A stretch of 64,000 nt of DNA from positions 16,012 to 80,011 of the forward strand of contig JBMORT010000006.1 of NCBI GenBank assembly GCA_049319825.1. The letters run 5' to 3'. Made by a program: the position numbers and the translations under genes. The notes below the pieces were generated by a model, which saw only the letters and a list, made by a program, of their open reading frames with translations, ran no database searches and had not been told where the DNA came from. This DNA is from Patescibacteria group bacterium (GTDB lineage: Bacteria > Patescibacteriota > Patescibacteriia > UBA11705 > DATKZF01). Positions 11,999 to 40,142 of this stretch are shown here, in pieces (within the stretch, counting starts at the first letter, position 1; each line of letters starts with the position of its first letter).

Positions 11999-12133
11999 TA
12001 CCAGATAAAAGATGAACTATTTTTGGGTTACAAGATGTACAAGATTTGTCATACGAGATAGTACCAGATAAAAGATGAACTATTTTTGGGTTACAAGATG
12101 TACAAGATTTGTCATACGAGATAGTACCAGATA
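11962..12133. repeat. 63-bp tandem repeat, about 2.7 copies (gggttacaagatgtacaagattt...)
   Basis: Copies start at 11962, 12025 and 12088, and are near-identical. Copy 1 overlaps the femAB-like stop codon. Confidence 0.8.
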
Positions 12134-12298
12134 TTAATGAATCTACAAGATTAACCAGATCATTGTGCGAGATGATACAAGACATATTTAAGGATTTTGA
12201 TAATTTATACATCGTATCATCTGTTTCTTGTAAACCTTAGAATAATCAATTCCAATCTCGTAATATCTTGTATAGTAAATCTTGTAATCTTGTAAATT
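12134..12298. repeat. heptamer array: TACAAGA direct copies, then four inverted TCTTGTA copies (12226-12298)
   Basis: The same 7-mer that is embedded twice per 63-bp unit recurs here, in direct and then inverted orientation. Confidence 0.5.
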
Positions 12299-12386
12299 CA
12301 ATTTATGAAAAATTACTCCCGCAAAACAAATAAAAGACAAACCCGCTACCGCACTCCCAGCCGAGTAAAATCATACAGCTATCAAG

Positions 12387-12409
12387 ATCACCGTAAACGG
12401 TGATTTTTT
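12387..12409 (+). terminator. rho-independent terminator (atcaccg-taaa-cggtgat plus a T6 run)
   Basis: It probably ends the femAB-like transcript, after a roughly 400-nt repeat-rich 3' region. Confidence 0.5.
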
Positions 12410-12482
12410 GTCATTGATTTTGATATATTGTTTATTTTATCCCCATTTTTTTTTGACAAAAAATGATTATTCTTGTATTTCG

Positions 12483-12491
12483 TGGTATAAT
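12483..12491 (+). promoter_or_regulatory. extended -10 promoter candidate (TGgTATAAT)
   Basis: It lies 115 nt upstream of the ATG at 12606 in an AT-rich region. Confidence 0.25.
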
Positions 12492-12605
12492 TTTATTATC
12501 AAGAAAATCTTTGTGGATAATTTTTTTATATATCAATTAAGTGAGGAAATGCTGCTAGGTCCAACTATCGAGTGATATTTTTGTTTATAAAACCGACTTT
12601 GGATT

Positions 12606-13544
12606 ATGACATTGAATTCGAAGAAATTTAAATTCATTTTTGTAGTTGGGATCTGTTTTTTGGTAATTCTTTTCAATCAGTCGGTTTTTGCCATGCAAAG
12701 CAGCAATTACATTATCAATTGGGATTCGATCAATGCCGGCGGCAACGATAATTCCCAATCGGCAAATTACAAAGTTAGAGATACCTTGGGACAGCTCGGT
12801 CCGGGAAAAAGTGACAGCGCCAGTTATACGCTGCATGCCGGCTACCGGGTGCCTTTTGATGAGCCGCAAATTCTTTCTTTTTCGGTTAATGCGCAAAACG
12901 ATAACACCGAGGTTGCTTACAGCGCTTTCAGTTCGGCTAGCTTTACGGCAACCGTGGCCGATGCCAGCGGCTACGCTGCTGGCGATTACATCGCGGTCGT
13001 GGAAAATGTCGGGCCGAATCAAATGGTCGCCTCCGGCAGAATAATCGATGTCAGCGGCACCGTGCTGACGGTGGACAAATGGTCCGGTGATCAAGGATCA
13101 ATGAACGGCAGTCCGAGCGGCGGGGATGATTTCGTTTATAAACTGAATACACGATACATATCGCTGGATAAGCTGACCAGCGCGGCGGTCTCGACCGGCG
13201 TGGCCATGGCCGAGGTAACGACCAACGCTGTTAACGGCTATACCGTATACATTAAGGAAAATTACAATTTGCGATTAAACGGCGGACCGCGCGATATTGA
13301 CGACGTCCTTGATTCCGCGGTGACGGCGGGCAGTGAAGAGTATGGCATCGAAACTACGGGCGATCATGCCCAGGGAGCAAATGATTTTGCCATTACCGGC
13401 GTTGAGCAAGCGGTTTCCAGCCATACCGGCCAAGCGGCGCTGGAGCGGGTTAATATAATTTATAAAGCATCAATCAGCGCGACGCAAACCGCAGGCGGCG
13501 AGTATAGCCATACCACCAGCTATTACGCTATCGCGAATTTTTGA
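12606..13544 (+). CDS. secreted protein, surface-locus paralogue A (312 aa), C-terminus ...TSYYAIANF
   Basis: N-terminal signal peptide (KFKFIFVVGICFLVILFNQSVFA). The C-terminal roughly 130 aa are homologous to the 13896..14975 product, including the identical end motif. Confidence 0.85.
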   Translation: MTLNSKKFKFIFVVGICFLVILFNQSVFAMQSSNYIINWDSINAGGNDNSQSANYKVRDTLGQLGPGKSDSASYTLHAGYRVPFDEPQILSFSVNAQNDNTEVAYSAFSSASFTATVADASGYAAGDYIAVVENVGPNQMVASGRIIDVSGTVLTVDKWSGDQGSMNGSPSGGDDFVYKLNTRYISLDKLTSAAVSTGVAMAEVTTNAVNGYTVYIKENYNLRLNGGPRDIDDVLDSAVTAGSEEYGIETTGDHAQGANDFAITGVEQAVSSHTGQAALERVNIIYKASISATQTAGGEYSHTTSYYAIANF

Positions 13545-13895
13545 TGGGGGAGGATGTTATTTGGAAATTTGAAAATAGAAATTTGAAACGGAGGAAACTG
13601 AAAGATGAAATGAGAAGCTGAAGATTAGAAATTTGGTAATGGAAGATAATCGTCTGCGAAAATTTAATAAAATTAAATGCTATAAATTTCGATGTTATGG
13701 ATATGCTGATAGATGAGAAAATCGTATCTATCCGCGTGTTCGTAACCAATTTGTTCTTTGTTAAAATAAACAGCTAATTTATTCATAAATTAAAGGTCGA
13801 AGCTGTCAAACAAAATTCGGTTTCGAAACCGACTGGTCAGTCCCCGCTTGTCGTGGACTGATAAGTTAGAGAATTAAAAATTATTAATTAAAACT

Positions 13896-14975
13896 ATGTA
13901 CAGAAAAAGTATAATAATGTTGATTGTGGCATTGATTTTCAGCATGTCATATGTTGTTGTTTCTCCGACTGTAGCCAATGCTTCACACGGCGTGACAATG
14001 TATGCTGATCTCGTCGCCGACGGCGGCACCAATAACCCGTCTACCGTCACCACTCGACCGGAAATAGCCGCCAGCGCCACGGATGAAGTGTTCTTTGGTT
14101 ATGTAGCCGAGGATGAATCAGCCACCAATGAAACTGTGGAATTGACATTCCCGACCGGCTGGACAATCGCCACCAATTGCGCGACTCCGACCACCGATGC
14201 TGATGGCGATACCACCGCTGATGGCGCCGGCGTTGTCGCTGGTAACGTGTATACATACACTTTCACCACTTTGACGACAGCCGCTTCCACCACCGGTCTT
14301 GAATTCTGCGTCGTGGTTACCGCTCCGGCAACCGCAACTAATGCGCCAGTCTATTTGGACAGCATGGCGACCGGTGAAGCTGAATTTGGCGCCACCCTGC
14401 TTTACATTGAGGATGCCAATGACGTCAATGTCACCGCGTCCGTGGAAATCACTTTGGTCTTCGAAATTAGAGAAGGCGATGACACTGGCCTGATCAATTA
14501 CTGCTCTCTGGGCACATTGACCGGCTCCAGCGTAGCTACCTGCGATTATCGGTTGCACGTTGAAACCACCGCCAGCTCCGGTTATAACATCAGATTTAAA
14601 ACCGACGGTGATTTGAGAAAATCCGGCTCCGGCGATGTCGCCGATCCGGAGAACATCGACCGCATCACCGACGGCCTTGGTACTATCACCACCGCCAGCG
14701 CTGAGTCGTATGGCGTGGCGGTAACCGGCGGCAACTGCACCTATAATTCTGCCGCGGGCACTGAGGCGGGCATCTATACTACTGACGACTCTCCGTTGCC
14801 GGCGTTCGCGACAGGTGAAACCGCGCTATTTTCTTGCGGCGGTCCGAATATCCCGACTTATGCTGGTGATACCACCAACACGGTATTGATGGAGCATCGC
14901 GCCAAATCTGATGATGGTACCGGTTCCGGCACTTATCAGCAGATTGTCACCTACTACGTTATCGCTAATTTTTAA
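13896..14975 (+). CDS. secreted protein, surface-locus paralogue B (359 aa), C-terminus ...VTYYVIANF
   Basis: Signal peptide present, Thr/Ala-rich. The C-terminal domain (GYNIRFK...SYGVAVTGG...YYVIANF) is conserved with paralogue A. Confidence 0.85.
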   Translation: MYRKSIIMLIVALIFSMSYVVVSPTVANASHGVTMYADLVADGGTNNPSTVTTRPEIAASATDEVFFGYVAEDESATNETVELTFPTGWTIATNCATPTTDADGDTTADGAGVVAGNVYTYTFTTLTTAASTTGLEFCVVVTAPATATNAPVYLDSMATGEAEFGATLLYIEDANDVNVTASVEITLVFEIREGDDTGLINYCSLGTLTGSSVATCDYRLHVETTASSGYNIRFKTDGDLRKSGSGDVADPENIDRITDGLGTITTASAESYGVAVTGGNCTYNSAAGTEAGIYTTDDSPLPAFATGETALFSCGGPNIPTYAGDTTNTVLMEHRAKSDDGTGSGTYQQIVTYYVIANF

Positions 14976-14985
14976 AGTTAGCTTT

Positions 14986-15020
14986 GGTCCCGAATCCATT
15001 CGGGGCCAGCCGGTAATTTT
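14986..15020 (+). terminator. terminator-like hairpin (ggtcccgaa...ttcggggcc) with a weak T tract
   Basis: Hairpin followed by ...taatttt. Confidence 0.3.
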
Positions 15021-15111
15021 AAAGATTAAAGATGAATATTGAATATAAAAATGAAGGATTAGACTAACAATTACATATTTGGAGGGAGATTATTATTAAT
15101 AAAAAATTGTT

Positions 15112-16062
15112 ATGAAAACATTGAAAGTATTTTTGGTAATACTTTTATCGGTAATGTTTATGTCGCCCGGTTTGGGCCAGGCGCTGACCGTCATACCGCC
15201 GGTGCTGGACAGCATTGATGCTGAACCCGGAAAAACCTATCAGGGATCTTATGAGTTGTTTAATGAAACGGATGTAGCGCAAACCTATTATTTTAAGGCT
15301 CACAATTTCGTGGCCCGAGGCGAAGAGGGGGAATCGGATTTGCTCACGGATGAGGATCAACAAATCGGCTTAGCTTCATGGGTTAAATTAGACGAACCGC
15401 AGCTCGTATTGGTCGGGGGAGATAGAAAAAAAGTCAATTTTAAAATAGATGTTCCGGCCGACGCTGAGCCGGGAGGCCATTACGCGGCGATTTTCGCCAC
15501 CACCCAGCCGCCGTCAGAAGACGTTGGTTTGGGTGAAAATACCGGAGTGCTCTTACTGGTGACCGTCCCCGGCGACATTCGAGAGAACGCGGAGCTGGTT
15601 GAATTTTCGTTGGCCAGCGGAAAAAAGGTTTATAACCGGCCGCCGGTCGAGTTTTTAATCAGAATAAAAAATAATGGAAATGTTCATTTCAAGCCGTTAG
15701 GCGATATCAGCATCAGCGGCTGGGCCGGGGAAAAGGTTAAAGTTGATGCCAATCCCAAGCGGGGAAACGTCCTGCCAAAGAGCATCCGGGCACTTCATCC
15801 CGTATGGGCCGGTCCGGCTGAGCGCGGCGGATTCATGCAGGAATTGAAGAATGAATGGCATAATTTCGCCTTCGGCCGATATAACGCACACCTGGAAATG
15901 GAATGGGGCTCTAATAATGAAAAGTTCATCGGCAATGTGGCGTTTTGGGTTTTCCCGTGGCGGGTGATGTTGGTCGGGTTGATTATTTTGGTTTTATTGA
16001 TTTTATTGATTAGAGGATACAATAAAGCGATTATTAAGAAAGCGCAAAAGCAAAATAAATAG
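15112..16062 (+). CDS. cell-surface protein with signal peptide and C-terminal TM anchor plus basic tail (DUF916/DUF3324-like by pattern)
   Basis: Signal peptide, then LTVIPPVLDSIDAEPGKTYQGSYELFNETDVAQTYYFKAHNF (Ig-like beta-rich). C-terminal FWVFPWRVMLVGLIILVLLILLIRGYNKAIIKKAQKQNK forms a TM segment with a basic tail. Confidence 0.8.
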   Translation: MKTLKVFLVILLSVMFMSPGLGQALTVIPPVLDSIDAEPGKTYQGSYELFNETDVAQTYYFKAHNFVARGEEGESDLLTDEDQQIGLASWVKLDEPQLVLVGGDRKKVNFKIDVPADAEPGGHYAAIFATTQPPSEDVGLGENTGVLLLVTVPGDIRENAELVEFSLASGKKVYNRPPVEFLIRIKNNGNVHFKPLGDISISGWAGEKVKVDANPKRGNVLPKSIRALHPVWAGPAERGGFMQELKNEWHNFAFGRYNAHLEMEWGSNNEKFIGNVAFWVFPWRVMLVGLIILVLLILLIRGYNKAIIKKAQKQNK

Positions 16063-16075
16063 TTGATTGGTTATG

Positions 16076-16101
16076 GCTGACCGCCAGGGGTGGCGGTCAG
16101 C
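16076..16101 (+). promoter_or_regulatory. perfect 11-bp stem-loop (gctgaccgcca-gggg-tggcggtcagc) between the anchor gene and the giant gene
   Basis: Followed by an A-rich rather than T-rich tract, so it is not a canonical terminator. Possible attenuator or RNA-processing site. Confidence 0.35.
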
Positions 16102-16132
16102 AATAAAAAATTAATTATTAGGAGAATCTAGC

Positions 16133-19100
16133 TTGAAGAGTAGGCGGATTTCAAAACATTTGATGAATTCCCGAAATTCAAATTTCCACAAAACAAAGAA
16201 GACAAGGAACCGAAAGCTTGTTGTGTTTTTAATACTGGCAATGATTTTTAACTTGTCTTATTTTAATATTTCGTCAAAGCCGGCCGAGGCCGCGGCCAGC
16301 CAGTTCATCAATTATCAGGGCAAGCTGCTTGATACCAGCGGAATTGAGGTTGATAACGGTCAGTATCATGTTAGATTTAAAATGTACAATGCCGGAACCG
16401 GCGGCTCTCTGCTGTGGTCTGAAAGCTGGGATAACACCACTACTACGGCAACGGTCGATGCGGGATTATTCACTTTAAAATTGGGAGAAGTTAATCCTTT
16501 TCCGGCGACCTTGGATTTCCAAACAGAAAGCGAATACTGGTTGAGCGTGGAAATCGGCGGCTCCGGAGCGACGCCGACTTGGGATGGAGAGATGACGCCG
16601 AGAAAGGAAATTACCGCGGTGGCCTACGCGATGAACGCCGATAAACTTGACGGCAAGAGCGAGGAAGAGTTTGCCGATTTGAGCGAAGACGAAACGATCA
16701 CCGGGCAATACACGCATGACGTGGATGTATTTGACGGCGCGGCGTTAACGACAATTATCAACGCTTCAGACGATAACAGCGTGGACACTTTTTCTTCTTT
16801 GCAAGCCGACGCGGTGCAAAATTCCAATGACGGAGATAATTTATACGGCATATACGTCACGAATTTGCAGGGAACAGCCTCCACCGGCAATGAATACGCG
16901 ATATATCAAGCCGGCACCGGCTGGGATTACGGGTTGTATGTGGAAGATCAGGCGTATTTGGGACAAAATTTGCGCTTTAGCAGCAATTTCGATGTAAAGA
17001 ATACTATTATTGCCAGTGTGAATATAATGGATGTGCAGTCCATTGGAACGAACTCAATGGCTTTCCGAGTAATACCGGGCACAGCTCCCGCTTATTCGGC
17101 GCTGGGAGAAACGCAAGCTTCATTTTTCGAATTTCATCGAAATTCCAGCGGTACGGACAGAATGCTGCTGACTGCGCCGACCAATGCCACCAATGGCTAT
17201 CAATTTGTATCCTACGCCGCGCTTCCGGCGACTCCGGGGCCTTTCTCCTTCGGGTTTACCACCAGTTTGGCCGCGCCGCCGACTAAAGTCATGAATATTT
17301 TCAACACTGGGTCGGTTGGCATTAATACTTTTGGGCCGGATGCCAAGCTGGATGTGTTGGCCACATCTGGTGAGCAATTACGGCTGACATACACGGATGG
17401 TTCGGTTTATACCGGCTTCACCGTCAATTCGGACGGAGATTTGATTGTCGATGCCACCGGCAGTGATATTCGGCTCGCGACCGGAGATAATTTATGGGTC
17501 GCTTCATCGGCTGACATTGTGATTGGCAATACTTATCTAGGTGAATCTACCGCTCAGATCGATAGCGGCGCGTATAATGTGGGAGTGTATAACGGCAATT
17601 TAACATACTCGACCAATACGAATGTTCAGCAGGTGCTTGAAGATTTGGATACGGCGATTGGTTCCGCCGGCAGCAAATGGACGGATGCGGGAAGTTACAC
17701 TTATTTAACGGCTACGACCGATAATTTAGTAGTGGGTTCAAACGCGACGGCTGATGCTGAGTTATTTATGGACGTTGCTGATAAACGGTTACACATCGGC
17801 AGCGGATATATTGATTTCGATTTTACAGGTTCCGGCAACACGGCTGTCGGAGATGATTCTTTATATTCCATTACTAATGGTACCCATAATTCATCTATTG
17901 GTTATCAAGCCATGTACTATTTGACATCTGGCTATGACAATACGGCACTGGGATATCAGGCATTAAGAATAGACAGTTCCGGAACTGGAGGACAATCTTT
18001 TGGCAACACAGCCATTGGTAGTTTAGCTTTATCCAGTATTAATACATCCGCGGCTGTGTACAATACCGCTATCGGCGTTTCATCACTCCAGAATAATACG
18101 ACAGGTTTGGCAAATACTGCTATCGGTGCGTTAGCACTCGATTCAAATGTCATTGGTGCATCCAATGTCGCTTTAGGTTATTCAACACTTCAGGCGAATG
18201 TCAGCGGAGATTATAACGTAGCTTTAGGTGCAGAGGCACTAGACTCATTGACCTCTGCAGATGCTAATATTGCCATCGGTTACAAGGCTATGGATTCAAC
18301 AACGACTGGTCAGTATAACGTGGCATTAGGCCATCAATCTCTGCGAGCTAATATTAGCGCCGACTATTCTACAGCACTGGGCTATCAGGCGCTCTACAGC
18401 AATACGGCGTCGAATATCACAGCCGTGGGCGCGCAAGCCATGTACTCAAACGGCACGGGAACAGAAAATGTGGCGATGGGTTATCAATCACTATATTCAA
18501 ACGACTCAGGCGATCAGCACACAGCAATCGGCTATCAATCATTGTACTCATTATCGGCGAATGTGGATGATAATACAGCTGTTGGATACAGAGCAATGTA
18601 TTCGAATTTAGCTGGAGGTCAGAGCACAGCTATCGGTTCGCAGGCACTTTATAACGCGTTGGCGCCGGGCTACAGCACGGCAGTGGGCTACCAAGCTTTA
18701 TACGCGACCACGACCGGAGATTACAATATCGCCGTGGGAAACCAATCGATGGTAGCCAATACGACGGGCAGCGACAACGTCTCTATTGGAGTAAATGCGC
18801 TGGATTCAAACACTACGGGAAATTACAATATAGCGATCGGCCGCCAATCGCTGCAGGCAAACATTAGTGCCGACTATTCTACAGCACTGGGCTATCAGGC
18901 GCTCTACAGCAATACGGCGTCGAATATCACAGCCGTGGGCGCGCAAGCCATGTACTCAAACGGCACGGGAACAGAAAATGTGGCGATGGGTTATCAATCA
19001 CTATATTCAAACGACTCAGGCGATCAGCACACAGCAATCGGCTATCAATCATTGTACTCATTATCGGCGAATGTGGATGATAATACAGCTGTTGGATACA

Positions 19101-22100: not shown

Positions 22101-25100
22101 CAGCCGATCAATTGTTCCGAATTAACGGCAATATGGAGGTTCAGGGAAACCTGTCGCCATTGGCCGATGACGTTTATAATCTGGGCTCAGCCGATTCCAG
22201 ATGGGCGAATTTATATCTGGGCCCCGCGTCTTTATACATCGGTCAGAATGGTAATGATTATTCCATTTCTTATAACACCGGATCCAGCGCGTTGGTATTC
22301 AATGAGTCGGGAGCGGATCGGGACATCAGGATTGAAGGCGACACCGACACCAATCTGTTTTTCGTGAATGCCGGCAGCGACCGAATTGGCATTGGATTAA
22401 ATAATCCGGCGGAAAAATTGGAAGTCAGCGGCGCGATCAAGCTGGGAACAACTTCAAATACCAATGCCGGCACCATCCGCTGGACCGGCGCGGATTTTGA
22501 GGGCTATGACGGCGCGGGCTGGCAGAGCCTGACATCCGGCGGCGGATCCTTATGGACGGATGTTGGAGACTTCACTCACTTAACCTCGACAATCGACGAC
22601 GTCGTGATCGGATCAGACGCGACCGAAGACGCAGTATTTTGGTTTGATGTTACCGATGGGGCCGAAAAATTGACCATAGACGCTTCAAGCGATGCTCATT
22701 CATCCGCTGTCGCGTTCGACGTTAATTTTCGAGGGAGCGCGAACAATTTGAAAGCCGTGGATATTTACGCCGGTTCTTCAGCCGGGTTGACCGGCGCGTA
22801 TAATAATTTAATGGGACAAAACATCACCGTCGGTATAAATGCCGCGGATCAGGCCGGCACCATGCGCATCGGCAGCAACGTCAATATCGATGGCACCAAT
22901 GCCACCGCTGATGTTGTCGGCTATACTTTTTGGGATTTCGTTGACACCGGTCAAGGCGGCTTTACTGGCGTTGGATCGGCCACTGGGTTATATCCAATAA
23001 TGAATCATACCGGTAGCGGCAGTTTGTACGGAGTGAATAATTACTTAAGACATTCGGGATCGGGCAGTCTTTACGTTTCCGCCGCGCAAGCGCTGGGAGC
23101 CTCGGGATTCACCGGTTCCTTATACGGAAATTCATTGACCATGGTCAATCAAGCCGGGAGCAACGCGCAAAACATAATGGGGTTTGATCTTAATGTCACC
23201 AATTCGTCTTCGGCCACCGCAGACAGCGTTATCGGCGGCAAGATAACGGTCGACGCCTCCGGCGCGGAAGATATCGCGGCTTACGGATTGCAGGTAGTTT
23301 CCAAAAACGCGCTGGTAGACAGTTTTATCTATTTGGCGAGCCAAACCGGCGGCTCCGCCGGCTACGGCTTGGATATGAACGGCGCGACAATCGCCACCGC
23401 GGATATCAGATTGTCCGGCGGATCGACAATTGATAATTCGACGTCAACGATAATCGCTTTCAGCGACGGCATCAGAATCGGAAACACTGCGGACACCACG
23501 GCCGGAAACATCCGCTGGTCCGGCGCGGATTTTGAGGGCTATGACGGCGCGGGCTGGCAGAGCCTGACATCCGGCGGCGGATCCTTATGGACGGATGCCG
23601 GAGCGTTTACATATTTAACCGCCACCACCGATGACATGGTGGTCGGCTCGGCCGCCACTTCGGACGCGGAGCTGTGGTTTAATGTCAGCGGCAAGAGATT
23701 GACTATCGGATCGGGGTATGTTGATTTCGATTATGGAACCGGCACGGACAACGTGGGCATCGGCAGCAATACTTTAACGGCGATCACTACAGGAAGTTAC
23801 AATATCGGCATCGGCACCGGCGCCTTGCAGGCGGCGACGGATAATAATGGCCTGACCGCTGTCGGTTATCAGGCGTTATATACGAATTCATCGATCGGAA
23901 CAAATAATACCGCTGTTGGTTACAGAGCATTATATCTTAATAACGGCGGTGATTTTAACACCGCGCTTGGATACGAAGCGCTTGATGCCAATGTGAGCGG
24001 GTCAAATAGTGTGGCGATCGGGTACCGCGCGCTTACCAATAGCACCGGAAGCGGAAATGTGGCGGTCGGTTCCGAGGCGCTGTTATCCGCCGTCGGCTCA
24101 ACCAATATCGTCGCGATTGGATATGGCGCTGTTCAGGATCTCACATCGAACGGAGAAGTTGTCGGCGTAGGATATAATTCGCTGGCAAACGCGACTGGCG
24201 CCGGAAACACGGCAATTGGATACATCGCCGGACAAGGAAACGCCGCGTCGGCTACAGGGACGGCCAACACTGCTGTGGGCAGAGGCACATTATCGTCTTT
24301 TTCAACCGGAAATAATAATGTGGCTGTTGGGTATAACGCGTTGGATCAATTGAGTACCGGTACTTATAATATTGCCCTCGGCACCAATGCTTTGGGCGCG
24401 GCGGTGACCGGAAGCAATAACATTGCTATCGGCAACAGCTCATCACTCTTAAACACGTCCGGGATTGATAATATCGCTTTAGGATTTTTCGCGTTAAGCA
24501 CTAATACCGCAGGCCAGGGGAATGTCGGAATCGGACGCAATTCTTTAAGAAACGGCACTGGCAGTTATAATGTTGCGCTGGGCTATGAAGCTGGTTATCG
24601 GGAAACTGGCAGCAATACATTATATATAGATAATCAGGACAGAGGCAATGAAGCCTCTGGCGAGGCCGAATCCTTGATTTATGGCGTGTTTGATAATGTC
24701 GTGTCCAGTCAATTATTCAGGATAAATGCTCCAACGCAAGTTCAGGGAAACTTAATTCCATATCATGATAATGTTTATAATTTAGGCAGCCCAAGCAACC
24801 GCTGGAACAATATTTACACCGACAGAATGATTATGAGTTCCAATGCCGATCTCTATTTTGACGGCACCGATATTTTCTTCAGGAATTTTGAAACCAATGG
24901 AGACATCACCTTGGACGCGACCTCAACCGGCACCGGCAATGTCATTGTCGTCGCCGATAACTGGGCGGTCAACAGCAGCGGCAACATGTCCATTAACGGA
25001 GACATGACCGTGACCGGCGGAGATTTGAATCTTTCATCGGATATCCGGCTGCATGTCAGCGGCGATGATTTGCAGATTCAAAACGCTGCCACTGGCGGAG

Positions 25101-28100
25101 ATATATATTTGGATCCGACATACAACGGCTCCAGCGGATTCGTTTTTGTCAGCGGTGATTTGATGCCGGTTTACGATGATACTTTTGACATTGGATCCCC
25201 GGATCTGCGCTGGCAGGACGGATATTTTTCCGGGCAGGTTTATGTCGGCAATACATTAGAAATTTCAGATGATGGATTTTACGATACTGATAGCGCCATC
25301 GGTTTTTTCCCCGATGGACAGCTGACCAGAGGGTTGGCAATTACCGACGATGTGACTGTGGGTTTGGCTATTACCACCAATGCCAGCACAAATTTGACCA
25401 TTTTGCCAAACAACGCCGATTTGGACGTGCGTCCGACAGCTAATAGCACTGACTTTTTTCAAGTGCAAAATGCCGCCGGCACAGCGATATTTAACGTTGA
25501 CAGCTCCAATTCACGAGTCGGCATCAATACGGCCGCGCCGGATTACGCGCTGGATGTCGCCGGATCTGTCGGCATGGACGATTATATATATCATAACGGC
25601 GACAGCAATACGTATTTGGGATTTTCCGCGGACGATACGCTGGTGGTTTATTCTTATGGGGTGAAGTTGATGGAATATTACAGTTCCTCGGCTTTATCCA
25701 ATTCCGTCACCGGTAACCCCGATAACAATCGGGTGAACTTCGTTTGGGACGGGGACACCAACGACAGTCTATTCCGCATCGCCGCGCTTCAGGAGCAAAT
25801 CGGCATTGGCGCCACCGGCGGCGCGGCCAGCATGGACGGCAAGCTGGTCGTTTATCAGACAGCGACCGCTGATATATTTAATTTGTATGATGGGTCGGAT
25901 AATGTTTTCACGGTGACTGACGGCGGCAATGTCGGCATCAGGCAAACCTCGCCAGCCAGTGATTTTGAAATATTGTCAGACAACAGTACCACGGGCGCGA
26001 CAATGCAGCTCAGACGAAACGATGGCGCCGTGCTTGATGGAGATGATTTGGGATATTTGTATTTTTCAGGATTGGATAGCGGCGACACACTCAACGCCAC
26101 TGGCGCGTACATAAAAGCTGAGGCCACAGATACCTGGGGCGACGCATCCGATCCGGATGACGCGCCGACAGCTATGCATTTTTATACCCAAAACGACGGC
26201 ACTGGCAATAACATGACTTTCCCGATGATGACGATATATGAAGATATCGGCGTTGGCTTATTGCTTAACGGCAATTTGCCGCAGGCGACTTTTCACATGG
26301 AAACCAATAAAAACGGCTATGGCATCCGGATGGAAGAGTATCTCGGCGGCGGCGCCGGCGATTACTGGGAATGGGGAGTCAACGCCGCCGGTGATTTGAA
26401 TTGGAACGACAACGGCACGACCAGAATTTCATATAAAAACGGTGGCGATGTGGGCATCGGCACCAGCGGGCCCGGCGCTAAATTGGAGATTTATGATAAT
26501 GACGATGTCGGCGTGGCATTGGAAGTCAATAGCGACGAGTCGGATACGGCCGCGCAAAATGTTTTTCAAATCAGAACTGATTATAATGCCGCCGATGATT
26601 TGGTGTTTGTGGTCGATGCCGATGGCACGGTCCGAAACGATAATGGCACCTACACTACCGGCGCCGACTACGCGGAATATTTTTGGACAGCTGACATGAC
26701 TTTGGCCACGGCCGACGTGGTTTGCATCGATCCGACGCACAATAACGCGGTTTCCAAATGTTCCGGCGCCAATGACGCCAATATTTTGGGCGTTGTTTCC
26801 ACTAACCCGGCCTTCATCGGCAACGCGGGATCAAACTGGATATTTGACGGTGATCCGAATTATGTGATCATCGGTTTGGTCGGTCAAGTGCCGATTCGGG
26901 TCAGCAATGAAAACGGCCCGATCAGCGTTGGCGATTATTTAACGTCTTCGTCCACTCCGGGCGTGGCCATGAAAGCCGACCCCGGCAGCCCGACAGTCGG
27001 TATCGCCATCGAGCCGCTGACGGCGGGCGCCGGCATCATCAAAGTCGTGATTTCCAGAAATAACGGCAGCAATACTTTCTGGGCTGCCGGCAACAATGGC
27101 ATTTATCAAAACAATTTGCCAACGATTATCGGTCCGGATGCCGCTTTCAGCTATGTGCAGAGCGCGGCCGCCGGAGATCTGCAGATCGCCGATGATTTTG
27201 AAGCCAGAGGCGACGGCTATGTCGGCGCGAATATGATTGTCGGCGCTTCGACATCGGCCGCGGAGACATTGGCTAACGCCGGGTTTGCGATGAACGGCAA
27301 TGATTTGTTTGTGGCCGGCGATGCGGGCATTGAAGGCAATATTTATACTGACGGCTCGTTTATCGCCGGACCGGGTACCACCACTTACAGCGACGGCTCG
27401 ATTACTTCGACAAATACGATGACCATCACTTCAAATACCGGAGACCTGACGCTCGACTCTGGTTCCGGCACATTGAAGCTCGGCGCCGGCACGAATGCAA
27501 TATCAAATTCTGATGCGGGCGCAGATTTAACATTAAATTCGAACGGAGACATCAATTTCTTCAATTCAAATAATTCAATTGATTCCGGCGGCAATTTGAA
27601 TCTGGCCGGCGATATTAATATCGGCGGATCGCTAGTCGTTAATGATATGAGGCTGGGAGATATCGACATCGCTAACGGCGCAATAGCCAGCACGGGCGAT
27701 TTGACCATCGCTTCTGGCGCCAGCCAGGATCTGACGCTTGATTCCGATTCGGGAACGCTCAAGCTCGGCGCGGGCACCAATGAAATCTCCAATACTGACG
27801 CCAGCGCGGATCTGACCATCAAATCCGAAGGCAACATCAATTTCTTCGACGCCAATACATTCATTGATAAAGACGGGAACCTGACTCTGGCCGGCCAGCT
27901 GCAGGCGGCCATGGATGTTATCGCTCAGCAGAACGTGATTATAAAAAATCAGCTTGAGGTGGATCAAATCGCCGCTGATGATCGGCAAGAAATCACCGTC
28001 ATGGACGAGATGGTTTTTGAGCAGGGATTAAAGGTCTCGGCCAAAACGGACACGACAGTCGCCGGCACGCAAGTCAACGTCGCCGGATTCGGCAATGCCA

Positions 28101-31100
28101 ACAACCAGACATCGCGCGCGGCCGCGGTTTACAACGGCAAGCTTTATGTCGGCACATACAACACTTCAAACGGAGCCGGGCTTTGGGCATACGACGGTTC
28201 GAACTGGGCATCGGTTGATACTAACGGCTTTGGCAATGCCAACAATACTTCAATTAATTCAATGATCGCCTATGGCGGCGGTTTAATCGTGGGCACGAGA
28301 AATACGAACAAGGCCGAGGTTTGGATATGTGACGATACGGATACTTGCTCGCAGCAAAATTTAGGAGCGACTTTTGACGGTAATAACGACGCGGCGCAGG
28401 CAATGACCGTTTATAACGGCAAATTATTCATGGGCACGGACAATGCCATTGATAACAGTGAAATTTGGCAGTTTATCGACACCAATAATTGGTTAATGGC
28501 CGATAACACCAACGGGTTTTTAAGCACGTATCAAAATGACGCCTTGACGGCGCTGCTGAGCATTGGCTCACAGCTTAATAATGAAGGATTATTGGCCGGT
28601 ACCAAAAATAACAGCGGCGCGCAGATTTGGCGAAGAGGATCAAATTTCACCTGGACCAGAATCGATAATAGTTCATTCGGCGATATCAATAACGTGGAGG
28701 TGATGGCCATGACCGCATATAACGGTCAGGTGTTCGCCGCCACCAAAAATTCCAGCGGTTGTCGAGTTTATAAACAGCGAGAAGAAAGCACCAGCTGGGA
28801 CGCGGCCGGCAGCGCGGGATTGATAAATTCGGCCTATACCGAATGTCGTTCCATTGTCGTCTATAATGGCGATTTGTACGCATTATTAGGCAAGACTTCG
28901 GGCGCGGGCATGGCCGTGGCCAAATATAACGCTATGGCCAACAGCTGGTCCGCGGTTTATACCAATGCCAGCGACCTGGCCGGTTATTGGTTGCAAACAT
29001 TCGGCGAAAAGTTGTATTTTGCCGCTGAAAGCTCCGGTCAAGTGAAAGTATTTGAATATAATGAAAATAAGAATCTGTCCCAGTCGATTGAATTCATGGC
29101 CAATGGCGAAACGGCCGCCTTATACTTTAAATCCGACGCGGCCGGCGACGCCAATATCGGCCAGCAATCGGCGGGTGCGTTTATCATGACCCATACGTTG
29201 ATCACCAATTCCGGCGCTTATGACTTGGCCGAAGATTGGCCGACGGAAGACCCGGGGATCGAAGCCGGCGACGTGGTGGCCGTTGACCCGTTCAATAAAG
29301 CCCACGTGATCAAGGGTTCGAAAGATAACAGCGCGGTGGGCATAATTTCCACTGAACCGGGCTATATTTTGTCACAAAAAGCCGATGGTCGAATTTACCG
29401 TCCGGTGGCTTTGGCCGGCCGGGTACCGGTAAAAATAAGCAATGAAAACGGGCCGGTTAAGGCGGGAGATTTATTGACACCGGCGTCAATACCGGGTTAT
29501 GCGATGAAATTGATCGGATCCGGGCCGGTGATCGGCAAAGCTTTGGAAGATTACGATTTCAGCGCCGCCGGCGATTCGTACGAGGTATCCCAAGAATTGC
29601 AATCCGCGGCTCAGCAATTTGACGAAATCGCGGAAAATACGATGAAGCTGGTTGAAAATACGGAAGAAGTGGTCAGCTCTTTAAATCAGACCAAGCAAGA
29701 ATTATTGAGCATTGAAAATAATCAGGAATTAACAGCTCAAGAAAAAGACCAGTTGATCAATGAACTATCCGGGGAAATAGAAAATGTGGCGGTCGCTTTG
29801 GAAATAGATGATCAGGCCATTACCGACATCAGCGACAGCGCCGATATCGTTGATGTACAAAATCAAATAATTGAAAAGGCCCAGGAATTGGAGAATCAGG
29901 CGATGCAGGCGGAAATCGCCAAGAGCCAACTGATTCAGCCCATGGCCAAAGATCCGGGCAAGGGCAGAATTATGGCATTGGTGATGAACAGTTATTATTT
30001 TGAATCAACCGACGGCCAGACAGCCGGTCAATTGGCCGCTGGTTCGGCGGCCATCGATCCGCAATCTGTCGCGAGCGTTGACTTCGCTGAAATATTAACT
30101 GTTGCCGGCGATGGAGCGATTGAATTGGCCTCGAGCGTCAGAATATACGGCGATTTATATGTTAATGGCAATTTGGTGGTGACCGGCGATATCGATCTGG
30201 CGGGTAATTTAAAAATCGGAGATAAAATATATATATCCAATCAAATGTCCGGCACGGCGCTGATCGCCTCCGCGGACGCGACTGCGGTCGAAGTGAAGTT
30301 TGATACTCCATACGAAGAAATACCGAGAATCACCGTCACGCCGGAACTGCTGGGATTAACGGCCGATGAAAATATATTTGATGTTTGGGATGGTCGGTAC
30401 ATCATTACCGATAAATCGACTGAGGGATTTACCATTAATATCGCCAACGCGCTTTGCGTGTCCGCCGGCGCGTCAGCTGATGTTGTCGGTTGTCAGCATC
30501 ATTTAAGGTTTGATTGGGTGGCGTTTGGAGTTGTTTCCGATGAAGAATCGCTGGCGCAGATGGTCGAGATGACCGCCAAACCGGCCAGTACCGATAAAGA
30601 GCCGCCATCGATTGACCCTGCGGTCAAAGTAATCATTCGAAACGGCGCCAATTTAGACACCACCGATATCGGCAACAGCTTGATTGGCCTGGGATACGCT
30701 GTTTACAAAGGCGCCGACACGATCAGTTATTACTCCACCTCCAGAATATTGGTGCTGAATTCGCAGCTGTCGCCGTCCGTGCTCAACGAAATTAGGTTCT
30801 TAATCGGCGGTGAGATAGAGTACGCCTCAGCAGCCGGTGAATATGGCGATAGCGACGTGGTAATTTTCTTGGGAGAGGATTTAACCAAAGATGTGTTCAC
30901 CTACGATCAGCAGAAATTATTGGATTCAAATATAACCGACGAAATCCCACCGCTGCCCGCACCGATCGCCGAAACGGCGTCGAGCGACGACACGTTGTCC
31001 GAACAAGCGAATAACGATCAACCCATTCTCAGTGCGGCTGACGGGGCGGTTGAAGATGAAGAAACGCCGATCAATGTCGACGGTCAAATTTCGGATTCGA

Positions 31101-31159
31101 CAGTATCAGCCGAGTCGCAGCCCGAACCGGAAATAGTTGCTGTCCCCGTCGGTGAATAA
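16133..31159 (+). CDS. giant surface protein (5008 aa): N-terminal signal anchor, tail-fibre-like N-domain, three blocks of YadA-head-like beta-roll repeats, beta-propeller-like repeats, coiled coil
   Basis: Uninterrupted 15-kb ORF with a TTG start and AGGAGA 7 nt upstream. Repeats of the type NTAIGyxALxSNTTGxxN. A module ...SLIYGEF...RINGxxQVQGNL.P..D.YNLGS...RW.NLY occurs three times. YNGKLYVGT / NGFGNANN units are propeller-like. Confidence 0.9.
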   Translation: MKSRRISKHLMNSRNSNFHKTKKTRNRKLVVFLILAMIFNLSYFNISSKPAEAAASQFINYQGKLLDTSGIEVDNGQYHVRFKMYNAGTGGSLLWSESWDNTTTTATVDAGLFTLKLGEVNPFPATLDFQTESEYWLSVEIGGSGATPTWDGEMTPRKEITAVAYAMNADKLDGKSEEEFADLSEDETITGQYTHDVDVFDGAALTTIINASDDNSVDTFSSLQADAVQNSNDGDNLYGIYVTNLQGTASTGNEYAIYQAGTGWDYGLYVEDQAYLGQNLRFSSNFDVKNTIIASVNIMDVQSIGTNSMAFRVIPGTAPAYSALGETQASFFEFHRNSSGTDRMLLTAPTNATNGYQFVSYAALPATPGPFSFGFTTSLAAPPTKVMNIFNTGSVGINTFGPDAKLDVLATSGEQLRLTYTDGSVYTGFTVNSDGDLIVDATGSDIRLATGDNLWVASSADIVIGNTYLGESTAQIDSGAYNVGVYNGNLTYSTNTNVQQVLEDLDTAIGSAGSKWTDAGSYTYLTATTDNLVVGSNATADAELFMDVADKRLHIGSGYIDFDFTGSGNTAVGDDSLYSITNGTHNSSIGYQAMYYLTSGYDNTALGYQALRIDSSGTGGQSFGNTAIGSLALSSINTSAAVYNTAIGVSSLQNNTTGLANTAIGALALDSNVIGASNVALGYSTLQANVSGDYNVALGAEALDSLTSADANIAIGYKAMDSTTTGQYNVALGHQSLRANISADYSTALGYQALYSNTASNITAVGAQAMYSNGTGTENVAMGYQSLYSNDSGDQHTAIGYQSLYSLSANVDDNTAVGYRAMYSNLAGGQSTAIGSQALYNALAPGYSTAVGYQALYATTTGDYNIAVGNQSMVANTTGSDNVSIGVNALDSNTTGNYNIAIGRQSLQANISADYSTALGYQALYSNTASNITAVGAQAMYSNGTGTENVAMGYQSLYSNDSGDQHTAIGYQSLYSLSANVDDNTAVGYRAMYSNLAGGQSTAIGSQALYNALAPGYSTAVGYQALYATTTGDYNIAVGNQSMVANTTGSDNVSIGVNALDSNTTGNYNIAIGRQSLQANISADYSTALGYQALYSNTASNITAVGAQALYSNTSGTGNAALGYQSLYSNTSGNNNSAFGYQSLFSHASGNDGNTAMGYRSMYSMTAGALNTSIGTEALYSALSTSGNVAIGYRAGYFETGNNRLFIDNNSRSDEATGRVRSLIYGEFASATADQLLRINGLTQIQGHLIPYQDNFYNIGSADYRWNNLYVDDAYVLKGATNINLESSGTPTTSGAYAIGANDEFTYSDSTNVQDVLDDLDAALASAGSKWTDAGDFTHLTSTIDDVVIGASTTEDAVFWFDVTDNAEKFSIDASSDAHTTAALDIDFRGDANNLKVVDIYAGSASGLSANSFLFGQSITLGYNAGDAAGTYRIANNVDVNGTNATSDIIGYAFFDNTQTGQDGLSGVGSATGAYSLISHSGSGSLTGFQNYLWHTGSGSVTGFGGSTSSSGSGTVYAANPQVYGLSGFSGSLYGYRTSMTNSSGSTQNMLGFDINVTNNAGASADSLWGGKITVKASGTEDTAAYGLQVVSDTDLIDSLINLAVVNGGSAGYGFDMNGATIATADIRLSNGSTIDNLTSTVVAFSDGIRIGNTADTTAGNIRWSGADFEGYNGAGWQSLTSGGGSLWTDAGTYTYLTATQDDLLVGSSNNASRPLYFDVSNMSLEIGSGDTLNARLYMYSQDGDSGLIEYAASDRFEFYDQIWVQGYIDFDNASADTAVGYVALNSNTTGTDNSAFGYQALVSNTTGSYNTGIGASSLISNNTGLANTALGASSLFSNQGGSNNTAIGVSALYSNVSGASNVAIGSGALGASVGEDYNVAIGAAALANSSGGTANSVIGFQSLTNNIIGDYNSALGYRSLYNATGDYNVAIGSDSLFSNINGDSNIAIGSYAGYHETGSNTLYIDSIYRSNEADGQVKSLIYGEFASATADQLFRINGNMEVQGNLSPLADDVYNLGSADSRWANLYLGPASLYIGQNGNDYSISYNTGSSALVFNESGADRDIRIEGDTDTNLFFVNAGSDRIGIGLNNPAEKLEVSGAIKLGTTSNTNAGTIRWTGADFEGYDGAGWQSLTSGGGSLWTDVGDFTHLTSTIDDVVIGSDATEDAVFWFDVTDGAEKLTIDASSDAHSSAVAFDVNFRGSANNLKAVDIYAGSSAGLTGAYNNLMGQNITVGINAADQAGTMRIGSNVNIDGTNATADVVGYTFWDFVDTGQGGFTGVGSATGLYPIMNHTGSGSLYGVNNYLRHSGSGSLYVSAAQALGASGFTGSLYGNSLTMVNQAGSNAQNIMGFDLNVTNSSSATADSVIGGKITVDASGAEDIAAYGLQVVSKNALVDSFIYLASQTGGSAGYGLDMNGATIATADIRLSGGSTIDNSTSTIIAFSDGIRIGNTADTTAGNIRWSGADFEGYDGAGWQSLTSGGGSLWTDAGAFTYLTATTDDMVVGSAATSDAELWFNVSGKRLTIGSGYVDFDYGTGTDNVGIGSNTLTAITTGSYNIGIGTGALQAATDNNGLTAVGYQALYTNSSIGTNNTAVGYRALYLNNGGDFNTALGYEALDANVSGSNSVAIGYRALTNSTGSGNVAVGSEALLSAVGSTNIVAIGYGAVQDLTSNGEVVGVGYNSLANATGAGNTAIGYIAGQGNAASATGTANTAVGRGTLSSFSTGNNNVAVGYNALDQLSTGTYNIALGTNALGAAVTGSNNIAIGNSSSLLNTSGIDNIALGFFALSTNTAGQGNVGIGRNSLRNGTGSYNVALGYEAGYRETGSNTLYIDNQDRGNEASGEAESLIYGVFDNVVSSQLFRINAPTQVQGNLIPYHDNVYNLGSPSNRWNNIYTDRMIMSSNADLYFDGTDIFFRNFETNGDITLDATSTGTGNVIVVADNWAVNSSGNMSINGDMTVTGGDLNLSSDIRLHVSGDDLQIQNAATGGDIYLDPTYNGSSGFVFVSGDLMPVYDDTFDIGSPDLRWQDGYFSGQVYVGNTLEISDDGFYDTDSAIGFFPDGQLTRGLAITDDVTVGLAITTNASTNLTILPNNADLDVRPTANSTDFFQVQNAAGTAIFNVDSSNSRVGINTAAPDYALDVAGSVGMDDYIYHNGDSNTYLGFSADDTLVVYSYGVKLMEYYSSSALSNSVTGNPDNNRVNFVWDGDTNDSLFRIAALQEQIGIGATGGAASMDGKLVVYQTATADIFNLYDGSDNVFTVTDGGNVGIRQTSPASDFEILSDNSTTGATMQLRRNDGAVLDGDDLGYLYFSGLDSGDTLNATGAYIKAEATDTWGDASDPDDAPTAMHFYTQNDGTGNNMTFPMMTIYEDIGVGLLLNGNLPQATFHMETNKNGYGIRMEEYLGGGAGDYWEWGVNAAGDLNWNDNGTTRISYKNGGDVGIGTSGPGAKLEIYDNDDVGVALEVNSDESDTAAQNVFQIRTDYNAADDLVFVVDADGTVRNDNGTYTTGADYAEYFWTADMTLATADVVCIDPTHNNAVSKCSGANDANILGVVSTNPAFIGNAGSNWIFDGDPNYVIIGLVGQVPIRVSNENGPISVGDYLTSSSTPGVAMKADPGSPTVGIAIEPLTAGAGIIKVVISRNNGSNTFWAAGNNGIYQNNLPTIIGPDAAFSYVQSAAAGDLQIADDFEARGDGYVGANMIVGASTSAAETLANAGFAMNGNDLFVAGDAGIEGNIYTDGSFIAGPGTTTYSDGSITSTNTMTITSNTGDLTLDSGSGTLKLGAGTNAISNSDAGADLTLNSNGDINFFNSNNSIDSGGNLNLAGDINIGGSLVVNDMRLGDIDIANGAIASTGDLTIASGASQDLTLDSDSGTLKLGAGTNEISNTDASADLTIKSEGNINFFDANTFIDKDGNLTLAGQLQAAMDVIAQQNVIIKNQLEVDQIAADDRQEITVMDEMVFEQGLKVSAKTDTTVAGTQVNVAGFGNANNQTSRAAAVYNGKLYVGTYNTSNGAGLWAYDGSNWASVDTNGFGNANNTSINSMIAYGGGLIVGTRNTNKAEVWICDDTDTCSQQNLGATFDGNNDAAQAMTVYNGKLFMGTDNAIDNSEIWQFIDTNNWLMADNTNGFLSTYQNDALTALLSIGSQLNNEGLLAGTKNNSGAQIWRRGSNFTWTRIDNSSFGDINNVEVMAMTAYNGQVFAATKNSSGCRVYKQREESTSWDAAGSAGLINSAYTECRSIVVYNGDLYALLGKTSGAGMAVAKYNAMANSWSAVYTNASDLAGYWLQTFGEKLYFAAESSGQVKVFEYNENKNLSQSIEFMANGETAALYFKSDAAGDANIGQQSAGAFIMTHTLITNSGAYDLAEDWPTEDPGIEAGDVVAVDPFNKAHVIKGSKDNSAVGIISTEPGYILSQKADGRIYRPVALAGRVPVKISNENGPVKAGDLLTPASIPGYAMKLIGSGPVIGKALEDYDFSAAGDSYEVSQELQSAAQQFDEIAENTMKLVENTEEVVSSLNQTKQELLSIENNQELTAQEKDQLINELSGEIENVAVALEIDDQAITDISDSADIVDVQNQIIEKAQELENQAMQAEIAKSQLIQPMAKDPGKGRIMALVMNSYYFESTDGQTAGQLAAGSAAIDPQSVASVDFAEILTVAGDGAIELASSVRIYGDLYVNGNLVVTGDIDLAGNLKIGDKIYISNQMSGTALIASADATAVEVKFDTPYEEIPRITVTPELLGLTADENIFDVWDGRYIITDKSTEGFTINIANALCVSAGASADVVGCQHHLRFDWVAFGVVSDEESLAQMVEMTAKPASTDKEPPSIDPAVKVIIRNGANLDTTDIGNSLIGLGYAVYKGADTISYYSTSRILVLNSQLSPSVLNEIRFLIGGEIEYASAAGEYGDSDVVIFLGEDLTKDVFTYDQQKLLDSNITDEIPPLPAPIAETASSDDTLSEQANNDQPILSAADGAVEDEETPINVDGQISDSTVSAESQPEPEIVAVPVGE
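18353..19450. repeat. 510-bp tandem duplication inside the giant gene (2 full copies plus a partial, about 99.8% identical)
   Basis: Copies start at 18353, 18863 and 19373 with a single mismatch (agcgcc/agtgcc). They encode identical 170-aa beta-roll segments. Confidence 0.9.
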
Positions 31160-31214
31160 CTGGTTTGCATGGAAATATTTTATCAGTTAAAATGGTATTA
31201 CTTAAAAATAAAAT

Positions 31215-31661
31215 ATGAATATTATGCCACAAAAAGAAATGGGCTCCATGCCGAAGAAATCAAATTCCAAGGTAATAATGATTTTGATTTTGGTGGTATT
31301 GATTATCGCGGCCGGAGCATTGTATTTTTTCGTTTATCGAAAAGGAATCAACAAATCGGACTATCAAGCGATTTTCTTATCGAACGGCCAAGTTTATTTC
31401 GGCAAAGTGACCAACAAAAACGCCGGCTATGTCGTGATGAAAGACATTTATTATTTGCAGCTCAAACAGCCATTGCAGGAGCAAACCGAACAGCAGCAGA
31501 ATTCACCCGATTTGATATTGATTAAGCTGGGCAATGAACTTCACGGACCAATGGATCGCATGGAAATCAATAGGAATCATGTGCTGTTCATTGAAGATTT
31601 GAAAGATGATTCAAAAGTGGTAACGGCCATAATGGAATACAAGGCCAGCGAACAGCAATAA
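31215..31661 (+). CDS. hypothetical membrane-anchored protein (148 aa)
   Basis: Single TM segment (VIMILILVVLIIAAGALYFFVY). It sits immediately downstream of the giant gene with no intervening terminator. Confidence 0.65.
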   Translation: MNIMPQKEMGSMPKKSNSKVIMILILVVLIIAAGALYFFVYRKGINKSDYQAIFLSNGQVYFGKVTNKNAGYVVMKDIYYLQLKQPLQEQTEQQQNSPDLILIKLGNELHGPMDRMEINRNHVLFIEDLKDDSKVVTAIMEYKASEQQ

Positions 31662-31687: not shown

Positions 31688-31718
31688 CCCCTCAAAATAG
31701 TATGAGGGGTTTTATTTT
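31688..31718 (+). terminator. rho-independent terminator (cccctca...tgagggg plus a T run)
   Basis: Overlaps the annotated comEC start codon. Confidence 0.6.
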
Positions 31719-39391: not shown

Positions 39392-39422
39392 TAACGAAAC
39401 TCATTGATAAAGGGGGGAAGAG

Positions 39423-40108: not shown

Positions 40109-40142
40109 GTCATAGCAGTGGGTCTTTTTTTTAATTCGAATG
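40109..40142 (+). terminator. rho-independent terminator (agaccta...tgggtct plus a T8 run)
   Basis: It ends a roughly 230-nt GC-rich hairpin-rich region downstream of the clpP-like gene. Confidence 0.5.

Follow-up and report, generated by a model that had tools for sequence, protein, structure and literature searches.

A probable compact variant of the Pam pilus operon with a linked giant tail-spike-like gene in a Patescibacteria genome

The cassette and its pilin-like proteins

The stretch of Patescibacteria DNA analysed here (64,000 nucleotides of contig JBMORT010000006.1, hereafter the window) carries at 12606-31661 a cassette of five consecutive open reading frames (ORFs) on the + strand. 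The list of ORFs, taken with a hydropathy scan, indicates that all five products are exported or membrane proteins. An earlier note, made from the same DNA, had described five same-strand genes with extracytoplasmic products, and the ORFs were indeed found in those places together with their signal or transmembrane segments. The cassette is probably a compact, divergent variant of the Pam pilus operon of the Candidate Phyla Radiation (CPR; Patescibacteria), with a giant adhesin gene linked to it; its likely product is a thin, adhesive fibre on the surface of this ultrasmall bacterium. Its genes are as follows.

12606-13544, + strand: gene A, 312 amino acids, putative PamT-like, tip-type secreted pilin
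13896-14975, + strand: gene B, 359 amino acids, putative shaft-type secreted pilin
15112-16062, + strand: gene C, 316 amino acids, putative membrane-anchored chaperone of the WxLIP (DUF916/DUF3324) and PapD-like type
16133-31159, + strand: giant gene, 5008 amino acids from a TTG start, secreted tail-fibre/tail-spike-like protein
31215-31661, + strand: small gene, 148 amino acids with a single N-terminal transmembrane segment

Signal-type hydrophobic segments are present at the N-termini of A, B, C and the giant protein in the hydropathy scan, and as helices in the AlphaFold models of B and C. The TTG start of the giant gene has AGGAG seven nucleotides upstream, and an alternative ATG at 16163 would give a protein of 4998 amino acids. 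In the source record A and C are annotated as hypothetical proteins.

The C-terminal ~130 residues of A and B are homologous (hhalign 99.4%, E-value 1.2e-21, 130 columns) and end in YYAIANF and YYVIANF, respectively; the two proteins are thus paralogues with a shared C-terminal domain, as had been proposed. Pfam has no match in either protein. Two NCBIfam models that derive from a 2026 preprint on Pam filaments (Troman et al., bioRxiv 10.64898/2026.03.03.709456) do recognise them. A is matched by CPR_pilus_PamT (NF058579) at model positions 5-132 (E-value 1.8e-14, 53.7 bits) and by CPR_Pam_pilin_C (NF058581) over its residues 182-308 (E-value 1.9e-6, 28.1 bits), and B is matched by the second model up to its last residue (E-value 1.4e-3, 18.8 bits). 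The matches extend through both families: the PamT model is found in 25 of 26 relatives of A (best E-value 9.5e-18), and the pilin C-domain model in 18 of the same 26 (best 8.7e-11) and in 29 of 32 relatives of B (best 1.8e-13). To judge from these sequence profiles, A and B are relatives of the CPR Pam pilins and most likely fibre subunits. The earlier note had treated them as accessory proteins of an undescribed attachment system; their kinship with the Pam pilins makes subunits of a fibre the likelier role, and the cassette is not an undescribed system but probably an unannotated form of the Pam donor-strand pilus system.

In the preprint two filaments of Ca. Mycosynbacter amalyticus were solved by cryo-electron microscopy. 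In PamA and PamB a linker strand stands between an N-terminal β-sandwich and a C-terminal Ig-like domain, which is open and accepts the linker of the neighbouring subunit; conservation in Pam pilins is highest in the linker and at the site that binds it. PamT lacks the linker and is the proposed tip, PamC and PamD are chaperones of PapD/FimC-like type that have a transmembrane helix at the C-terminus, and PamR, with RbmA-like tandem FnIII domains, an N-terminal strand and a C-terminal transmembrane segment, is the proposed terminator and anchor. The pam operons co-localise with a tail-fibre-like gene and with ATP synthase genes.

The two-domain pilin plan, with a conserved linker between the β-sandwich and the C-terminal domain, is present in B. 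AlphaFold models were made of B and C as monomers; that of B (mean predicted local distance difference test, pLDDT, 86) shows a signal helix; its N-terminal β-sandwich extends to residue 171, and its C-terminal β-domain starts at residue 187. The linker at 172-186 (EDANDVNVTASVEIT) has no secondary structure, is unpaired in the model and bears hydrophobic residues at alternate positions (V/A/V/I). It is the best-conserved part of the B family outside the C-terminal domain, the N-terminal domain being variable, and Y170, N175, V177, V179, A181 and V183 are nearly invariant in alignments of both 32 and 93 sequences. An unpaired, conserved segment of alternating hydrophobicity fits a strand that is donated to a neighbouring subunit, and the linker of B would accordingly act in trans. 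B has six cysteines, of which C203 and C216 are invariant in the 32-sequence alignment; in the 93-sequence alignment C216 is still invariant and C203 nearly so. By analogy with PamB, for which three cysteine pairs are described in the preprint, the six could form three pairs. The B-family profile aligns on A over the C-terminal domain only and the linker motif has no counterpart in A. A subunit with an acceptor domain and no donor linker could sit only at the distal end of a strand-exchange fibre, so A appears to be an acceptor-only, PamT-like tip subunit, with ~70 residues more than the PamT model.

The membrane-anchored protein C

The model of C (pLDDT 90) comprises a signal helix, two β-sandwich domains and a transmembrane helix at 283-315; hydropathy places the C-terminal transmembrane segment at 273-309, followed by a basic, lysine-rich tail. 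A loop of low confidence at 131-143 is flanked by the conserved strands PGGHYAAIFAT and GVLLLVTVP. The Pfam family DUF916/WxLIP_PGBD is matched by 17 of 42 C relatives (best E-value 1.5e-7), some of which are named DUF916 domain-containing protein by NCBI, and a search of PDB with the C-family profile found EfmWxLIP1 (E-value 0.0017). Four plasmid-borne WxL clusters of Firmicutes were taken for comparison, and against their WxLIPs the C family aligned over 209 columns that cover both DUF916 and DUF3324 (hhalign 97.0%, E-value 8.5e-11). C follows the WxLIP plan of DUF916, DUF3324 and a transmembrane helix at the C-terminus and, set beside the published description, also the PamC/PamD plan of a PapD/FimC-like fold with a C-terminal transmembrane helix. 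No NCBIfam model matches C or any C-like protein, including those of loci labelled Saccharibacteria. As far as sequence comparison goes, C is a true WxLIP relative that also fits the published description of PamC and PamD. The earlier note had seen in it a DUF916/DUF3324-type anchor; homology over both domains bears out the family, but the role is most likely that of a membrane-tethered assembly chaperone.

In WxLIP a disordered hairpin is predicted to turn into a strand and thereby complete the β-sandwich of the WxL protein, which has a gap (PMC10599100); the counterpart of this hairpin in C is the low-confidence loop 131-143. Filling such a gap with a strand is the same act as strand complementation by a pilus chaperone. 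The Pam preprint mentions neither WxL nor DUF916, and a literature search found no paper that ties DUF916 or WxL to strand donation or to chaperone-usher systems.

On the pilin side a similar relationship was not detectable. Pfam WxL has no match in A, B or 93 relatives. In motif scans A and B proved free of W-x-L, and none of the five products contains an LPXTG-like sequence; the absence of both signatures from A and B that had been remarked on earlier is therefore upheld. Comparison of the pilins with WxL proteins gave hhalign values of 1.5% and 1.1% only. The sole local matches coincide with the two WxL motifs, no more than a hint, and the WxL chain of PDB 9i25 was absent among the listed structural neighbours of B.

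The giant gene and gene order in relatives

Word-seeded searches detected 58 relatives of A and 33 of B, and an exhaustive profile search with B gave 1062 cluster representatives. C has more than 633 relatives, and a scan of species-representative genomes placed them in 313 genomes. The best 80 loci with a C-like gene all come from metagenome-assembled genomes of Patescibacteria type (Uhrbacteria, Kerfeldbacteria, Nomurabacteria, Parcubacteria, Minisyncoccales and some placeholder or wrong labels). Relatives of A and C and the best loci are thus of Patescibacteria type, in agreement with the lineage suggested at the outset. Some records among the loci L006-L085, and the proteins P0008 and P0083, are labelled Gammaproteobacteria, Methylomirabilis, Pirellulales, Bipolaricaulota or FCPU426, which is probably placeholder or mis-binned taxonomy.

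Gene order was surveyed in 82 non-redundant loci. In 79 of them the C-like gene is immediately preceded, on its own strand, by one or more pilin-like ORFs; an A-type pilin occurs in 39/82 and a B-type pilin in 42/82, and two or more C-like genes stand in tandem in 15/82. The closest relative, locus L001, has the order femAB-A-B-C-giant-small-comEC, identical to that of the window. Downstream genes were surveyed in the A-type loci with at least 8 kilobases (kb) of following sequence (n=20). An ORF of at least 1500 amino acids, or one running off the end, follows in 14 of these 20, compared with 4 of 25 other loci, and a recognisable homologue of the N-terminal domain of the window's giant protein is present in 9 of the 20. 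These counts indicate that the linkage to giant genes, a recurrence expected by the earlier note, is real and not universal.

A secreted protein of ~1100 amino acids directly follows C in 18/20 A-type loci. This protein is encoded at L004 3132-6446, at L011 10928-14269 and in 25 further loci; its N-terminus bears the motif NHxIxFTTPTGVDASTDTI, and its C-terminus resembles CarboxypepD_reg. It was looked for in the window and is absent there, as it is from L001 and L006. A second locus type, seen in L020, L032, L034, L043, L047, L054, L070, L074, L077, L080 and L084, has one pilin, two tandem chaperone-like genes and then genes for ~300, ~390 and ~800 amino acids, with no giant gene. This type is possibly nearer to the pam operon as published; its pilin in L043 reaches 41.7 bits with the Pam pilin C-domain model. 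In addition, among the best B-like representatives roughly one in four is a protein of 800-3368 amino acids that carries the pilin module at its extreme C-terminus. Such 'large pilins' with a complete terminal B-like module include L007 3970-7305 and 7380-9911, P0220, P0257 and P0353. They were considered as relatives of the window's giant protein and rejected, their N-terminal parts being unrelated to it.

The giant protein contains β-helix repeat modules that match PHROG families of tail spikes and virion structural proteins with E-values of 1e-130 to 5e-147, the Pfam family End_tail_spike (the endosialidase tail-spike motif) and a stretch of DUF6242 just above the Pfam cut-off. Two of its features can be placed as follows.

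18284-19603, + strand: three tandem 510-nucleotide repeats in the giant gene, β-helix 'NTAIGxxAL', with 92% and 71% identity to the first copy
26663-26833, + strand: Peptidase_G2 / intramolecular-chaperone autoproteolytic module (PF11962, 26 bits with a cut-off of 25, E-value 7e-6 on a 500-amino-acid segment)

The PHROG tail-spike matches map to the 510-nucleotide repeat region. The gene also has a duplicated module of ~2.4 kb, and modules recur several times along the single chain. Hydropathy and motif scans found no C-terminal transmembrane anchor and no LPXTG motif in the giant protein, and its C-terminal 498 amino acids have no relative in PDB. Its orthologue in the syntenic locus L001 has 2038 amino acids; the N-terminal 270 amino acids share 55% identity and the C-terminal ~370 share 38%, and only some of the middle modules are present. 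This comparison suggests that the ends of the protein are fixed and the stalk is variable. The giant protein is probably a co-inherited secreted adhesin with a role in contact with the host cell. A prophage origin of the region was rejected on gene context: the flanks are made up of housekeeping genes and contain none for phage structure, packaging or lysis, and the same flanks are found in L001. The protein resembles phage tail spikes and fibres with a C-terminal auto-chaperone (Peptidase_G2, endosialidase-type) in its β-helix repeats, End_tail_spike and Peptidase_G2, but differs from them in its signal peptide, its length of 5008 amino acids, its chromosomal housekeeping context and the repetition of its modules.

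The small protein has its N-terminal transmembrane segment at 14-45 and is kept between the giant gene and comEC in L001 (E-value 6e-67); whether it is part of the unit is uncertain.

Possible regulatory signals of the cassette are the following.

12384-12407, + strand: terminator-like hairpin, 10-base-pair stem then a T-run, between the femAB-like gene and the cassette
12452-12492, + strand: candidate promoter TTGACA ... TGgTATAAT, 5' of gene A, read by eye
14984-15009, + strand: hairpin 3' of gene B, -19 kcal/mol, z-score -2.8
16076-16101, + strand: GC-rich hairpin between C and the giant gene, -28.4 kcal/mol, z-score -6.9, equalled in stability by 0 of 200 shuffles

The first hairpin is the upstream boundary of the unit. 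The candidate promoter was missed by a consensus scan owing to its spacing. The hairpin behind B is possibly an attenuator or stabiliser, and that behind C has no T-run after it. Folding of the gap between the giant and small genes gave no hairpin, which is consistent with the earlier observation that no terminator precedes the small gene. Since stable hairpins follow both B and C, the five genes may not form one simple transcript. Rfam and tRNA scans found nothing within the cassette.

Known systems, rival readings and the wider window

The reading of the cassette as a compact, divergent Pam pilus operon is considered probable because of the family-wide pilin homology, the anatomy of B, the fold and transmembrane helix of C and the pairing of pilin and chaperone genes across loci. 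By this reading A, B and C would leave the cytoplasm through Sec, by way of their signal peptides, and C would remain in the membrane through its C-terminal helix. There a β-hairpin of C would slot into the groove left open in the C-terminal Ig-like domain of each new pilin and so hold it, a step suggested by the PapD-like and WxLIP-like fold of C, by the flexible, conserved hairpin at residues 121-152 and by the published models of WxLIP and PamC/D. A, a putative acceptor with no donor linker, would cap the distal tip, and B would polymerise by handing its linker strand 172-186 to the previous subunit; by analogy with the Pam filaments, donor-strand exchange would give a helical filament. As the cassette has no PamR-type gene, the base would stay on the C-bound subunit, and one may speculate that the last B-C complex holds it. 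The giant protein, with fixed terminal domains and a variable stalk, would be a co-inherited secreted adhesin that probably contacts the host cell.

The likeness to the Pam system lies in pilins exported by Sec, whose N-terminal β-sandwich varies while the linker and the C-terminal Ig-like domain are conserved, in a PamT-like subunit that appears to lack the linker, in a PapD-like chaperone on a C-terminal membrane helix, and in the lack of an usher, the tail-fibre-like gene nearby and the restriction to CPR. In contrast with the ~seven named Pam proteins, the cassette has three core genes (tip-like pilin, shaft pilin and chaperone). Its relatives are named Uhrbacteria, Kerfeldbacteria, Parcubacteria and Nomurabacteria, not Saccharimonadia or Microgenomatia, and its chaperone is DUF916/WxLIP-related, a kinship unreported for PamC and PamD.

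Several results weigh against this interpretation. All Pam scores fall under the NCBI curated cut-offs of 240 bits for the PamT equivalog and 55 bits for the pilin C-domain (A 53.7 and 28.1 bits, respectively; B 18.8 bits on the latter), and not one of the 93 representatives of B-like clusters attains an E-value of 1e-14, roughly the 55-bit line. When the B model was used for fold searches, only generic Ig-like adhesin and pilin domains came back, and when all chains of the PDB copy used, which contains no Pam pilin structure, were searched with the sequences and family profiles of A, B and C no pilin structure was found, the sole match being EfmWxLIP1, for C. Profile searches of the window found no PamR-like terminator or anchor, PamE or second chaperone; the only cassette membrane protein besides C is the 148-amino-acid protein with its N-terminal transmembrane segment. 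ATP synthase genes, the neighbours of published pam operons, are not among the window ORFs that have an annotation, not every ORF having been scanned. Finally, three points concern the giant gene: profile search found in its product no pilin or chaperone domain and no donor-linker motif, the -28.4 kcal/mol hairpin stands between it and C, and it is absent from 6 of the 20 A-type loci. Profile and motif searches of all window ORFs likewise gave no further pilin, donor-linker or chaperone modules.

These last points are what would be expected if A, B and C were a pilus operon and the giant and small genes an unrelated neighbour, either a surface fibre in its own right or a phage tail fibre, domesticated or left as a remnant. 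The strong phage tail-spike matches and the phage-type auto-chaperone modules of the giant protein also accord with that view, which is possible, if on balance doubtful. It leaves unexplained why a giant or open-ended gene follows so many more A-type loci than others and why 9 of those 20 A-type loci encode a homologue of the giant N-terminal domain. Moreover, the Pam preprint reports the same co-localisation with a tail-fibre-like gene, and the giant protein has a signal peptide and neighbours of housekeeping, not phage, type. The earlier note had called the giant protein the cargo of the smaller ones; the synteny behind this idea, its sole basis, stands, but the protein carries no pilin module.

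A compact Pam operon must also be weighed against a static surface complex of the WxL/csc type, in which C would tether A and/or B by strand complementation and the giant protein would be the displayed host-binding component. WxL/csc clusters comprise a small WxL protein, a large WxL protein and a WxLIP with DUF916, DUF3324 and a transmembrane segment (Hassan et al. 2023, PMC10599100; PDB 9i1y, 9i25). C is homologous to WxLIP over both β-sandwich domains and shares its C-terminal transmembrane helix, and in both systems a hairpin loop of the chaperone is predicted to complete the β-sandwich of a partner, as published for WxLIP (PMC10599100). The gene order of small secreted protein(s), WxLIP-like protein and very large surface protein also recurs on the Enterococcus plasmid pCREc1 (L086 4035-10338), which encodes a 238-amino-acid WxL protein, a DUF916/DUF3324 protein, a 1492-amino-acid leucine-rich repeat surface protein and a small LPXTG protein, and the CPR 'large pilins' with their C-terminal pilin module recall the C-terminal WxL domain of large WxL proteins. 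However, A and B match Pam pilin models and have neither the WxL domain nor its motif, homology between pilin and WxL protein is undetectable at hhalign values of 1-1.5%, the cassette has no LPXTG protein, the giant protein has neither a pilin nor a WxL module, and the phylum is another. The conserved, donor-like linker of B would be needless in a static complex, and the Pam homologues were seen as filaments by cryo-electron microscopy in the preprint. Such a complex is therefore regarded as improbable. The cassette is not a WxL cluster in the strict sense either, and was rejected as one: such clusters have at least two proteins with the defining WxL domain, which was looked for in A, B and 93 relatives and not found. 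It is very hard to credit that A and B are surface-layer (S-layer) or cell-wall structural proteins and C a generic Ig-like membrane protein, an idea to which the secreted β-sandwich architecture and the generic fold matches of B lend themselves, given the specific, family-wide Pam matches, the strict pairing of pilin and chaperone genes, the chaperone-like two-domain fold of C and the lack of any S-layer family match to the cassette products in Pfam and NCBIfam.

A Pam-type assembly would share with chaperone-usher pili (Pap, Fim, Ecp, Csu and CFA/I) subunits that appear to need the strand of a neighbour and a tip with no donor strand. In contrast to those systems, there is no outer membrane and no usher, the chaperone is membrane-anchored, the donor strand would be an internal interdomain linker and not an N-terminal extension, and there is no sequence similarity. 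No usher-like gene is present among the annotated neighbours, and related loci offer no conserved candidate.

The cassette may bridge two systems, since it would combine Pam-type pilins, a WxLIP-type membrane chaperone and a giant protein in the gene order of Firmicute WxL clusters. It is tentatively suggested, as an idea with less in its favour than the operon assignment itself, that CPR Pam pili and WxL clusters are offshoots of a single ancient donor-strand pathway that single-membrane bacteria run with a membrane chaperone and without an usher. Such a shared pathway would follow if PamC and PamD were also WxLIP relatives and the WxL domain were a very divergent Pam-type acceptor domain, and WxLIP would in that case serve as a chaperone of assembly and not as an anchor to the host membrane. 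The homology between C and WxLIP suggests how the WxL clusters of enterococci, listeriae and lactobacilli, which are poorly understood, may work. Among fibres, only Pam pili have so far been linked by structure to a cultivated CPR parasite's contact with its host. They were previously thought to occur mainly in two CPR classes; the three-gene form widens that spread, with chaperone relatives in at least 313 species-level genomes. Since the curated models miss this minimal form, genome annotation under-reports it. The simplicity of a cap, a shaft and a chaperone makes the cassette a good test case for assembly driven by a membrane-anchored chaperone alone, and the recurrent giant tail-fibre-like genes are candidate host-recognition determinants of episymbionts.

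The cassette is flanked upstream by ileS, a U32 peptidase gene, ruvA and femAB and downstream by comEC, ndk and uvrABC. At 11985-12150 a unit of ~64 nucleotides, catacgagatagtaccagataaaagatgaactatttttgggttacaagatgtacaagatttgt, is present in ~2.5 copies from the 3' end of the femAB-like ORF into the 600-nucleotide spacer before the cassette. The comEC-like gene is split into overlapping ORFs at 31702-33231 (DUF4131 and Competence) and 33117-34130 (metallo-β-lactamase domain), possibly because of a frameshift or a sequencing error or because the gene is a pseudogene. Positions 1-2000 of the window have a GC content of 0.563, compared with 0.40-0.52 elsewhere in it, and a 397-amino-acid ORF at 650-1843 has no Pfam match. 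A class II photolyase gene at 56591-57943 (PDB 8oet, E-value 2e-171) shares these 64 kb with uvrC, uvrA and uvrB (37811-47107), together a notable DNA-repair set for a lineage with small genomes.

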